Shown piece after piece: positions 18,001-21,000 of a stretch of 23,543 bases of DNA. The stretch is taken from IMG/VR virus record IMGVR_UViG_2734482776_000003, one strand, 5' to 3'. The stretch is from a virus (Duplodnaviria > Heunggongvirae > Uroviricota > Caudoviricetes). The position numbers were made by a program. How positions within the stretch are numbered: position 1 is the first letter of the stretch; each line of letters starts with the position of its first letter.

Positions 18001-21000
18001 TCAGTTCAAGGCCGTTTTTCATAGTCAACCTCAACAGAATTCGTTTATACTTTTCCATGTTCTCCCTTGCCTTATCCAAGGTCAGAAACACAAAACCCCG
18101 CTTGCTGCCAACAAACGGGTTTTTTACTTTTATTCACTTAGGTTTTGCCAGTTCGCAGGATTTCGTGTTATCCGTCCGCGTTGGCCAACGTCATTTTTCA
18201 GCAAAATATTCGGCTTATCTGTCGATTCCCCAGCACGCCAGCGCGCTCTCCTGGTCACGACGGGATACCTGACCATAACAGTTATTTGAGCGGATACGGC
18301 AGTCTCTGCCACCGTCCTTAATCCACCAGCGAAGCGCCTCACACGCTCCCCTGCGATCTCCTGCATTAATTCGTTTATAAAACGTCGACGGGAAACACTT
18401 ACCCGGGCCAATGTTGTAAGGACAGAATGACGCAATACCCGCTTTCTGGGGTTCAGTCAGTGGCACTTTGATGTTTTTCTCCACCCATGCCAGCGCCTTA
18501 TCACGCTCAATGGCGTTAACCCGGTCGCATTTCCCCTTCGACAGCTTCATGCCAGGAATAACAGGCTTACCATCCACCCGGGTGGCTCCACGGCAGATGG
18601 TCCAGATCCCCGCACCATCACGGTATGCCGTAGTGTGGTTACCTTCTTTTTCGTCAAGAAACTGGTCGAGGATTTCAGGCGCAGAAGCCCCTGCGGCAAT
18701 CAACGCCAGAACGGCAGCCGACAGGCCGTATTTTATTTTTGTGTTCATGGATATATTAAATATTCAGCCGCTGTCCCAGGCCCACTAAATACGCACTTTC
18801 AGAGAATCAGTAATTCTTCCCGGTAGCTTTCCTTTGTAGGTTATCAACACATTTTGCGCCTCTAAAATTATGGGGCGCTTTTCCAGCAACGGTTCGTTCC
18901 CTTCACATAACCCGGCAGCAATATCCATGAAAAACTGCTTCGCCTTCTTTTTCGCCTCAGCTTCGTAAAACTCCAGCGGGGCACCTTCAACACGATCAAG
19001 ATCAATCACCACATTTGGCAACAACAGTGACGTATACCCACCCGTTTCCAGCGCCACAGTAACAGTAATCTTATCCGGGTAATTATTTATCCCTTTAACA
19101 ACCAGTTCGTATTGTTTATTCATCGTCTACTCTCCCCGCGCCGCCTTACGCCGGTCTTCTTTAATTTTGAAATACAGGTTCGTCAGATATGTCAGCAGAC
19201 CAAACAGCAGACTCCCCAGCACGCCTATTGCCGCCCACTGAGACGGGGAAACCCTGTCCAGCAACTGCAGGAACCAGTAGCCCGTTCCCACCGCTGACGT
19301 GGTGTATGACACACCTGTTGTGATTTTTTCCATCTGGTACATACCCCGTCTCCCGCAATCCGGAAGCTCACAACATGAAAAAGGCCAGCAGCAGTTTACT
19401 GATGGCCCTGACCCCCGTTACAGCATCATGACCGATTCGGGTTGCGGTTCAGTCGCATCGGCGACCGGTGATTCAGGCTGAACTTCACCGCTCTCTGCGG
19501 TGGTATCTCCCGCTTCAGTCGCTGGCTCTGCCTGTACACCAAGCAGCTCATCCAGAATGGCATCCACTTCTGCATCAAGACGTGCTTCCAGCTTATGGCG
19601 GAGTTTCTGTTTCAGTGCGCTCAGGACTTCTTCAGAGCGCAGGACGTCCTTCACTGCTTCAGCAGTGACCAGGGATGTAATTTCTGACATGGGATTTTCT
19701 CGTCGAAAGGTGTGATTAAGAAAGTTGCCGCTAAATGAGCGGCTCTTCGGGTTTGCTTCCGGCTGACTGACTGGCGCTGATTTTCTCAGCGGCCCTTTTG
19801 TCAATCTGTCTGCGCCAGAAGTCACGCATGGCCCGGTATCCACCCGAAAGGAGATACAGCACACAGACTGCCGTACAGAAGTACAGCATCACCTGATGAA
19901 TAAAAGTCATAATTTCTTACCGTTATTGTTGACAATAAGAACTGTTTTCATTTAAAAAAACAGAGCACGAAAGTATCGTTCCTTTATATTTCTCCATGGG
20001 TATTACCACCGCCAGTCCATTCCGGTAACTGGCGGCTTTTTTTATCATGCCGCAGTGTCTGTGCTGTTCACTTCCACCGCAATGCTGTCAATCAGCAGCG
20101 TATACGTCGCCGATTTTGATATATCGGTCAGTTGCAGTTTGTCCACCGCCCCCGATGCCGGTGACTTCACCAGTGTGAACGCCGCTCCCCGTTTCTCATC
20201 CAGTACTGGTGTCACCTGAATGCTGTTGTTTCCGGCAAACTCAAAAGCCAGCGTGTGCCATCCGTTATCAAAGACCCCGAATGTATCCAGCTTCGCATTC
20301 GGCTTCCTGTGATGCATCGCGTTCAGGTTCGTCGTATCCGTCTGCAGGAAGAAAGACATCAGCATATCGTTACCTTCTCCTGACAGCATCACCCCCTCCG
20401 GCAGGGACGACAACTGCCAGTAAATGCCCAGGGCAAACTGATTCGGCACCAGTGAACCCGGCAACTTAAACCGTACGCTCACACGTCCGCCCTTCTTCAG
20501 TAACTCCGCACCCTGTCCGGCTGCATCATGCTCCAGAAACCAGATGTGGTTTTCCGGTTTGTTCAGTTGCAGAGCCTTACCTCCCGTAGCCCCCGCATCA
20601 CTGACCACCGCTTCAGCAATGTTTTTGTTAACACTGTCTCCGCCCGCCGGTTTGTGATAATAGCGCCAGCCCTGTGATGCCAGGTCTTCGCCGGATGCCA
20701 GCAGACTCATCAGGGTTCGGTTACTGACCGGGGCTTCCGTCTCTCTCTCCGGACCTTCACCGGAAGGTACGGTGGGCTTCACCATATCAGGCTGTTTTCC
20801 GGTAATGAATTCAGCGGTTCTCCCGGCGTGCACCAGAATCGCCGTTGCCAGACGGTCGGAAATAATCCCGCGGCGAGCCCATGAACTGAAATGGCTCGCC
20901 CTGTCCTGTGACGTCCAGGTGGCTGAGCTGTCACGCCATTTCGAACCGTAATATCCGATACCCGGAATGTCCGGGTCTTCTTCCGGTTTGTTCGTCGGCA

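Follow-up and report, generated by a model that had tools for sequence, protein, structure and literature searches.

Tree et al. described "convergent sRNA genes" (sRNA, small RNA) downstream of PR' in many prophages of Escherichia coli Sakai and regarded them as a general feature (PMC4104026). In the same work EcOnc32, from Sakai prophage Sp3, had the strongest peak among terminator-bearing orphan sRNAs in Hfq cross-linking and analysis of cDNA (CRAC), and a Northern blot placed it at ~112 nt (PMC4104026). PasA and PasC of enteropathogenic E. coli (EPEC) E2348/69 are located between sialic acid esterase and holin-lysozyme genes on the opposite strand, in a "> < >" arrangement (PMC8550237; bioRxiv 10.64898/2026.05.13.724894), and both were validated by Northern blot and destabilised in an hfq mutant (PMC8550237 Table S6). 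Esr41, also listed as EcOnc14 (RF02676), is encoded on the enterohaemorrhagic E. coli (EHEC) island SpLE1. It is Hfq-dependent and directly represses chuA, cirA, and bfr, as established with compensatory mutations (PMC5286369), and it acts at the chuA ribosome-binding site (PMC9002310). We analyzed a 23,543-nucleotide stretch of DNA from a virus of the Caudoviricetes (IMG/VR record IMGVR_UViG_2734482776_000003; the window hereafter), which is the late region of a lambdoid, Shiga toxin (Stx)-type prophage reading on the minus strand. A short plus-strand unit lies in this region between the esterase gene nanS-p and the DUF1378 gene. We give a probability of about 0.75 to the reading that this unit is an independent sRNA gene at ~19964–20043 that belongs to the Esr41/EcOnc32 group and acts in trans in the lysogen.

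The unit begins with the −35 hexamer TTGACA (19929–19934, plus), which was read directly and is invariant in the window, Esr41, PasA, PasC, and a second unit of E2348/69 prophage PP2. After an 18-nt spacer comes the −10 hexamer TAAAAA (19953–19958, plus), a TAnAAA element of the type found in the family, assigned here by homology. It has four of six consensus bases and is missing the final T; TTAAAA with a 17-nt spacer is an alternative. The promoter was missed by a consensus scan because the scan demands T at position 6. TTGACA occurs four times on the plus strand of the window and twice on the minus strand, and the hexamer alone is not significant; the significance of the unit comes from its conservation across variants and genomes.

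The predicted sRNA (19964–20043, plus) is ~80 nt long and is supported by an Rfam match to Esr41, alignments, and its fold. Its 5' end is placed to ±3 nt by analogy with Esr41, and its 3' end falls inside the U tract. The minimum free energy fold (−20 kcal/mol, z = −2.4) has four parts. A 5' hairpin with an ACGA/UCGU stem (19967–19979, plus) is followed by a U-rich stretch that is single-stranded, then by a 3-bp hairpin, and last by the terminator. The U-rich stretch contains a putative seed, AUUUCUCCAUGG (19988–19999, plus), which resembles an anti-Shine-Dalgarno sequence and is marked by motif conservation, complementarity to cirA, and a lack of pairing in most folds. The intrinsic terminator (20009–20043, plus) was found by direct reading and is also predicted by folding. 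Its stem has 8 + 2 bp, in which 20009–20016 pairs with 20028–20035 (CCGCCAGU/ACUGGCGG) and two more pairs form inside, and it is followed by C and by U7 at 20037–20043, giving a probable Hfq-binding 3' end. At −15.7 kcal/mol, this is the strongest plus-strand combination of hairpin and T run in the window, and the consensus scan missed it because of a loop limit of 8 nt. The U tract is found on the plus strand only, and the hairpin is therefore oriented to stop RNA made from that strand; late transcription is not ended by it.

An earlier note, made from the sequence alone, had listed the TTGACA hexamer, a weak −10, the terminator, and an open reading frame (ORF) of 59 aa at 19731–19910, all of which are present. 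It had also predicted a plus-strand RNA of roughly 45–80 nt. Homology sets the start near 19964 and selects the upper end of that range. The note's further claim, that this RNA is antisense to the 3' end of the nanS-p transcript and to the leader of the 59-aa ORF, holds in part: the spacer between nanS-p and DUF1378 is covered, but the nanS-p coding sequence and the Shine-Dalgarno sequence and AUG of the ORF are not.

Relatedness to Esr41 is seen along the whole unit. A permissive Rfam scan matched Esr41 (RF02676) to 19970–20043 over model positions 1–74 of 74, with 25.1 bits (E = 0.029). On the same model genuine Esr41 scored 108.6 bits and EcOnc32 scored 32.3 bits, likewise below threshold, and the models of AsxR and AgvB had no match at the site. 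The genuine Esr41 locus was taken from an O157:H7 genome, and its local alignment with the window has 46 of 60 identical positions from seed to terminator (z = 11.4, 500 dinucleotide shuffles). Three blocks are similar: the promoter (TTGACAAcgctAACTaTTTTtAaTTAtAtA in Esr41 vs TTGACAAtaagAACTgTTTTcAtTTAaAaA in the window), a middle block (UUUCUCCAUGGGGUAUUCCCUCCGCC vs UUUCUCCAUGGGUAUUACCACCGCC), and the terminator. The two units have in common a homologous promoter (TTGACAAnnnnAACTnTTTTnAnTTAnAnA), a seed region reading UUUCUCCAUGGG(G)UAUU.CC.CCGCC, a U-tailed CCGCC..GGCG terminator, a similar length, and the four-part fold, which was also found in EcOnc32 and in another relative (L094). In Esr41, EcOnc32, and L094, the 5' hairpin is at the matching place with a different sequence. 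Esr41 further differs in its terminator loop and in its location, since it adjoins iha in SpLE1, outside any lambdoid late region. The window element is under the gathering score of RF02676 and would not receive an Esr41 annotation; at gathering thresholds, Rfam had no match at the sRNA site and matched only four STnc100 copies upstream. Zhu et al. reported that matches to the Esr41 covariance model are frequent near PasD/STnc100, which fits the window element having been seen, unnamed, in their study.

EcOnc32 is a relative in both sequence and position. It was located in the Sakai genome at a site matched by the published probe (PMC4104026 Table S2), where it has the promoter TTGACAATAA, the body GAUGUGUGUUACAUAUCAUUUCUCCACGGGGAAUAUCCCCACGCCAGCGC..., and a 3' end beside a remnant of the esterase 3' end. 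Alignment with the window gives 71 of 102 identical positions from promoter to terminator, including the −35 region (z = 7.2). EcOnc32 has the same slot upstream of the holin, the same antisense orientation, and a corresponding promoter and seed (UUUCUCCACGGGG). Its terminator stem and loop are longer than those of the window element, its RNA is ~90–112 nt, and C stands for U in the seed. Sp3 also has neither an esterase gene nor a DUF1378 gene at this site.

PasA and PasC, together with EcOnc51/52 of EHEC, resemble the window element in a different way. They occupy the slot between a SASA esterase and the holin in convergent orientation, have a TTGACA −35, a poor −10, and a GCCAGC..GCUGGC-type terminator by the esterase stop, and depend on Hfq for accumulation. 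The 3' end of PasC is 1 nt from the esterase stop, as in the window, where the nanS-p stop codon (20045–20047, minus) is 1 nt past the sRNA terminator. Their bodies and seeds are unrelated to those of the window element, and the predicted PasA seed overlaps the PasA terminator. Only in the −35 and in the terminator are PasA and PasC like the window (alignment z = 1.2 and 4.1, respectively), which makes them relatives in position and architecture, not in sequence. Compared with prophages PP2 and PP5 of E2348/69 and Sp3 and Sp4 of Sakai, the window unit likewise lies between a SASA esterase and the lysis cassette and against the late operon, with its own TTGACA −35 promoter and an intrinsic U-tailed terminator 1–2 nt from the esterase stop. 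A side observation concerns PP2, in which a second, PasC-like promoter-terminator unit (L001 2370–2466, minus) lies between PasA and the esterase stop. This unit is the probable explanation of the "minor 236-nt" PasA species, whose end is at 743264.

Of 5426 complete E. coli genomes, 936 contain the 124-bp unit; its 2013 occurrences are 76%–100% identical and have no noncoding RNA annotation. Among viral contigs with a close DUF1378 homologue, 77 of 80 have it at a fixed distance from DUF1378, in 37 distinct variants; these 80 loci are all relatives at least 93% identical. A pattern search of viral contigs for the unit returned six loci only. TTGAC is kept in the 37 variants, and the base after it is A in all but one subtype. 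The U tract and the CCGCCAG/CUGGCGG stem are kept as well, and nearly all variants keep the motif UUCUCCAU, which is UUCUCCAC in EcOnc32. Sequence around the start site and in the terminator loop is variable, and indels of 1–2 bases are common, so neither strand is coding here. Inner terminator pairs change compatibly to U-A, U-G, or two extra C-G/G-C pairs (CG/CG). In one variant (L017, ~870–890) the loop is the exact reverse complement of that of its sister variants (GGCAGGAAUGGAC vs GUCCAUUCCUGCC), which amounts to an inversion inside the hairpin with the stem preserved. Other candidate features were rejected. A 41-aa ORF (19923–20048, minus) and the internal MEKYKG frame are broken by 1–2 nt indels in the variants, and an inverted repeat over the −10 (CTGTTTT/AAAACAG, 19942–19963), considered as an operator, is unconserved in the variants and probably fortuitous.

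In the remaining contigs the TTGACA and the terminator are unchanged, but they flank a different body of ~100 nt. In L074, L081, L088, and L101, a unit in this slot, ~150 nt upstream of DUF1378 on the opposite strand, has that TTGACA and the CCGCCAGC...GCUGGCGG terminator, with an unrelated ~100-nt body that does not contain UUCUCCAU. The slot is therefore always filled by a convergent sRNA-like unit with an exchangeable body, which suggests that sRNA bodies are swapped like cassettes between a fixed promoter and a fixed terminator.

The seed motif UUCUCCAU is common to the sequence relatives in the Esr41/EcOnc32 group and is unpaired in most of their folds. Pairing with positions −25 to +3 of K-12 cirA (CGUAGUUACCUCAUGGAGAUAUGGAA) has an energy of −22.4 kcal/mol for the window seed and −26.4 kcal/mol for Esr41. 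When sRNA bodies of ~50 nt were paired with cirA −60 to +30 and compared with shuffled sRNA bodies, z was approximately −3.8 for both the window and Esr41 and +1.1 for PasC. Across the whole window, the seed had no trans target above background (best −29.2, shuffled-seed mean −29.3).

Homology to detected sRNAs (Esr41 and EcOnc32) and conservation of promoter, seed, and terminator back the short plus-strand RNA of the earlier note, and this RNA is very probably real. We regard the unit as an unannotated Esr41/EcOnc32-type relative of the convergent prophage sRNAs, and not as a type I antitoxin; the mechanism is not new. This assignment draws on direct observations of anatomy, homology, conservation, and retained complementarity to cirA. 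A sigma-70 promoter, TTGACA-N18-TAAAAA, would drive the sRNA, and the intrinsic terminator would end it 1 nt from the nanS-p stop. The unit lies in the known slot between the sialate esterase and the lysis cassette and is convergent with PR'-driven late transcription. In the lysogen, with late transcription off, the RNA would most likely be made from its own promoter. Hfq would bind it by the U tail, and the single-stranded seed UUUCUCCAUGG would pair with ribosome-binding sites of host mRNAs (cirA-type, as for Esr41) and repress their translation. We infer the expression, Hfq binding, and target repression of the window RNA by homology with these relatives.

Several results weigh against this assignment. 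The Esr41 score of 25.1 bits is far under the gathering threshold of 102. Support from covariation is thin, with the outer seven terminator pairs never varying and the small hairpins shifting register between subtypes. An alignment of 15 family members with MAFFT misplaced the terminators of Esr41 and EcOnc32, and because of this and the register shifts we built no covariance model and claim no covariation. Pairing with bfr was at background for every sRNA, Esr41 included, in a duplex test that is crude; the cirA pairing is taken as supportive only, since the bfr test was uninformative even with Esr41. The −10 does not conserve the final T. Expression data for the relatives cover Esr41, EcOnc32, PasA, and PasC, not this exact variant. 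Finally, the Sakai Sp5 copy (L019), which lies at about 1272089–1272200 on the minus strand of NC_002695.2 and is 92% identical to the window, is missing from the 63 EcOnc peaks. That screen retained only peaks antisense to coding regions or >100 bp away from them, and the Sp5 copy may have been filtered out by this rule. In a separate observation on the same prophage (L019 4504–5813), nanS-p of Sp5 is broken by IS629, and the Esr41-like unit and DUF1378 downstream are intact.

The weak −10 had lowered confidence in the earlier note. Its weakness was confirmed, but a poor −10 is a trait of the family: EcOnc32 has TAGAAA, the PasC-like unit TGAAAA, and Esr41 TATATA, each aligning with TAAAAA of the window. 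Relatives with such elements are nonetheless abundant in published data.

An alternative that we consider unlikely is that the RNA is mainly a cis antisense regulator. After induction it would pair with read-through late mRNA, or its promoter would collide with late RNA polymerase, and the effect would be to tune processing, the stability of the nanS-p 3' end, or the timing and level of holin and endolysin expression. The convergent orientation and the full complementarity to late mRNA (−59 kcal/mol for the seed alone) are as this predicts. The slot also keeps a convergent promoter and terminator even where the body is replaced, as in the L074 type, PasA, and PasC, and an RNA interaction method based on ligation followed by sequencing (RIL-seq) found chimeras of PasA with the 3' ends of both esterase mRNAs. 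Esr41, however, keeps the promoter, seed, and terminator at a place where no esterase or lysis genes lie opposite. Conservation of the seed across otherwise diverged bodies points instead to trans targets, and what has been published on the relatives' functions places them in trans.

The two roles do not exclude each other, and at this locus a cis role may accompany the trans role. In its fullest form, which we think distinctly improbable, the unit would have a dual role. In the lysogen, it would be an Esr41-like trans regulator of host mRNAs for iron uptake and envelope functions. After induction, the duplex or the convergent promoter would gate processing or translation of the DUF1378-DUF826-holin-endolysin mRNA and so set the timing of lysis. 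The swapped bodies (Esr41-like, L035 type, L074 type, PasA, and PasC), set between a fixed promoter and terminator, would in that case form a cassette system by which host regulation is directed to new targets and the cis function is kept.

It is very unlikely that the unit is a decayed or silent relic with too weak a promoter, in which the hairpin alone matters, for example as a structural element of late mRNA. In favor of this are the incomplete −10, the lack of noncoding RNA annotation in any RefSeq genome, and the absence of the Sp5 copy from the EcOnc list. The −10 elements of expressed relatives are equally poor, however, and the 37 variants preserve TTGAC, the seed, and the U tract amid variation and indels at neighbouring positions. 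The hairpin is moreover oriented as a plus-strand terminator, with its U tract on that strand only.

The earlier note had also read the locus as a type I toxin-antitoxin layout. On such a reading, the 59-aa ORF would encode a membrane toxin, countered by the plus-strand RNA as a cis-antisense antitoxin that blocks translation or triggers mRNA decay. The ORF itself is genuine: it matches DUF1378 (19731–19910, minus; Pfam PF07125, 130 bits over 1–59 of 59 residues; phrog_494), a conserved phage gene whose product has one hydrophobic N-terminal transmembrane helix and a charged tail. Small single-transmembrane ORFs beside a divergently promoted short RNA complementary to the upstream transcript are also found in hok/sok, tisB/istR-1, and ldr/rdl, and the sRNA is perfectly complementary to the transcript 54–133 nt upstream of the DUF1378 AUG. 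The fixed distance between element and ORF in 77 of the 80 contigs is also in favor, although this tight co-occurrence is not independent evidence because the loci are near-identical prophages. The window differs from the known systems in that the RNA does not overlap the initiation region, a toxin promoter is lacking, linkage is not obligate, and the RNA has trans-acting relatives. The 5' end of the sRNA (~19964–20043) lies ~54 nt upstream of the AUG at 19910, and the RNA leaves both the AUG and the weak Shine-Dalgarno sequence untouched. In some type I systems (tisB/istR-1, for example), the action is far upstream of the ribosome-binding site, and a standby-site mechanism may be compatible with the sequence despite this gap. 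Duplexes in trans between the seed and the initiation region of the ORF were no better than shuffles. A minus-strand promoter for DUF1378 was not found in the spacer, so DUF1378 is read only within the Q-dependent late operon.

Linkage of the two genes also fails elsewhere. With tblastn (E ≤ 1), DUF1378 was not found in seven slot or related sRNA loci: E2348/69 PP2 and PP5, Sakai Sp3 and Sp4, the Esr41 locus of SpLE1, and L016 and L018, two E. coli loci with copies of the window element at 76%–80% identity. No small transmembrane ORF substitutes for it in L016 and L018. DUF1378 matched no toxin or defence family, and searches of NCBIfam and PADLOC were empty. A DUF1378 scan of the genome contigs found no relative, and nothing functional was found in the literature on EcOnc32 and DUF1378. 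The seed is also common to Esr41 at an unrelated locus, which is unexpected for an antitoxin that acts purely in cis. The initiation region is not overlapped, neither a promoter of its own nor a toxin-family match was found for the ORF, and DUF1378 is missing from several slot loci. A type I system is therefore highly improbable, and DUF1378 is an ordinary late-operon neighbour outside the sRNA unit.

Roughly one complete E. coli genome in six has the element, frequently in multiple copies. It is enriched in Stx-type prophages, unannotated in RefSeq, and missed at Rfam thresholds. If it acts as Esr41 does, many Shiga toxin-producing E. coli strains hold extra, slightly different regulators of iron uptake, colicin sensitivity, motility, and expression of the locus of enterocyte effacement. 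Such extra copies would, if this is true, help explain differences between strains in Hfq-dependent virulence regulation. The element also ties Esr41 of SpLE1 to a lambdoid-phage origin.

The gene nanS-p (20045–22009, minus) encodes a SASA sialate O-acetylesterase, identified by Pfam matches to SASA, DUF1737, and DUF6645 and by the RefSeq annotation of identical loci. DUF1378 is followed downstream by DUF826 (19690–19418, minus), then a phage-21-type holin, DUF1327, lysozyme, and Rz/Rz1. RefSeq E. coli loci identical to window positions 19690–20120 are labelled "SASA family carbohydrate esterase | DUF1378 | DUF826" and lack any RNA feature, and Stx1- and Stx2-converting phages have the same region at ~94% identity. 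A tRNA scan of the window found none. Four full-length tandem copies of STnc100 (22237–23216, minus; Rfam RF02076, 119–142 bits each) lie upstream of nanS-p, which seems many; common ancestry of STnc100 with PasD/EcOnc13 has been reported. A second convergent plus-strand unit (22121–22236) has the promoter TTGCGC-N18-TATTAT at 22121–22150 and a strong terminator of CCGCUCuucccagGAGCGG plus U9 at 22209–22236, which stands back-to-back with that of the first STnc100 copy. It matched no Rfam family above noise, and its position matches that of the AsxR/AgvB-type convergent sRNAs of Sakai Sp5.

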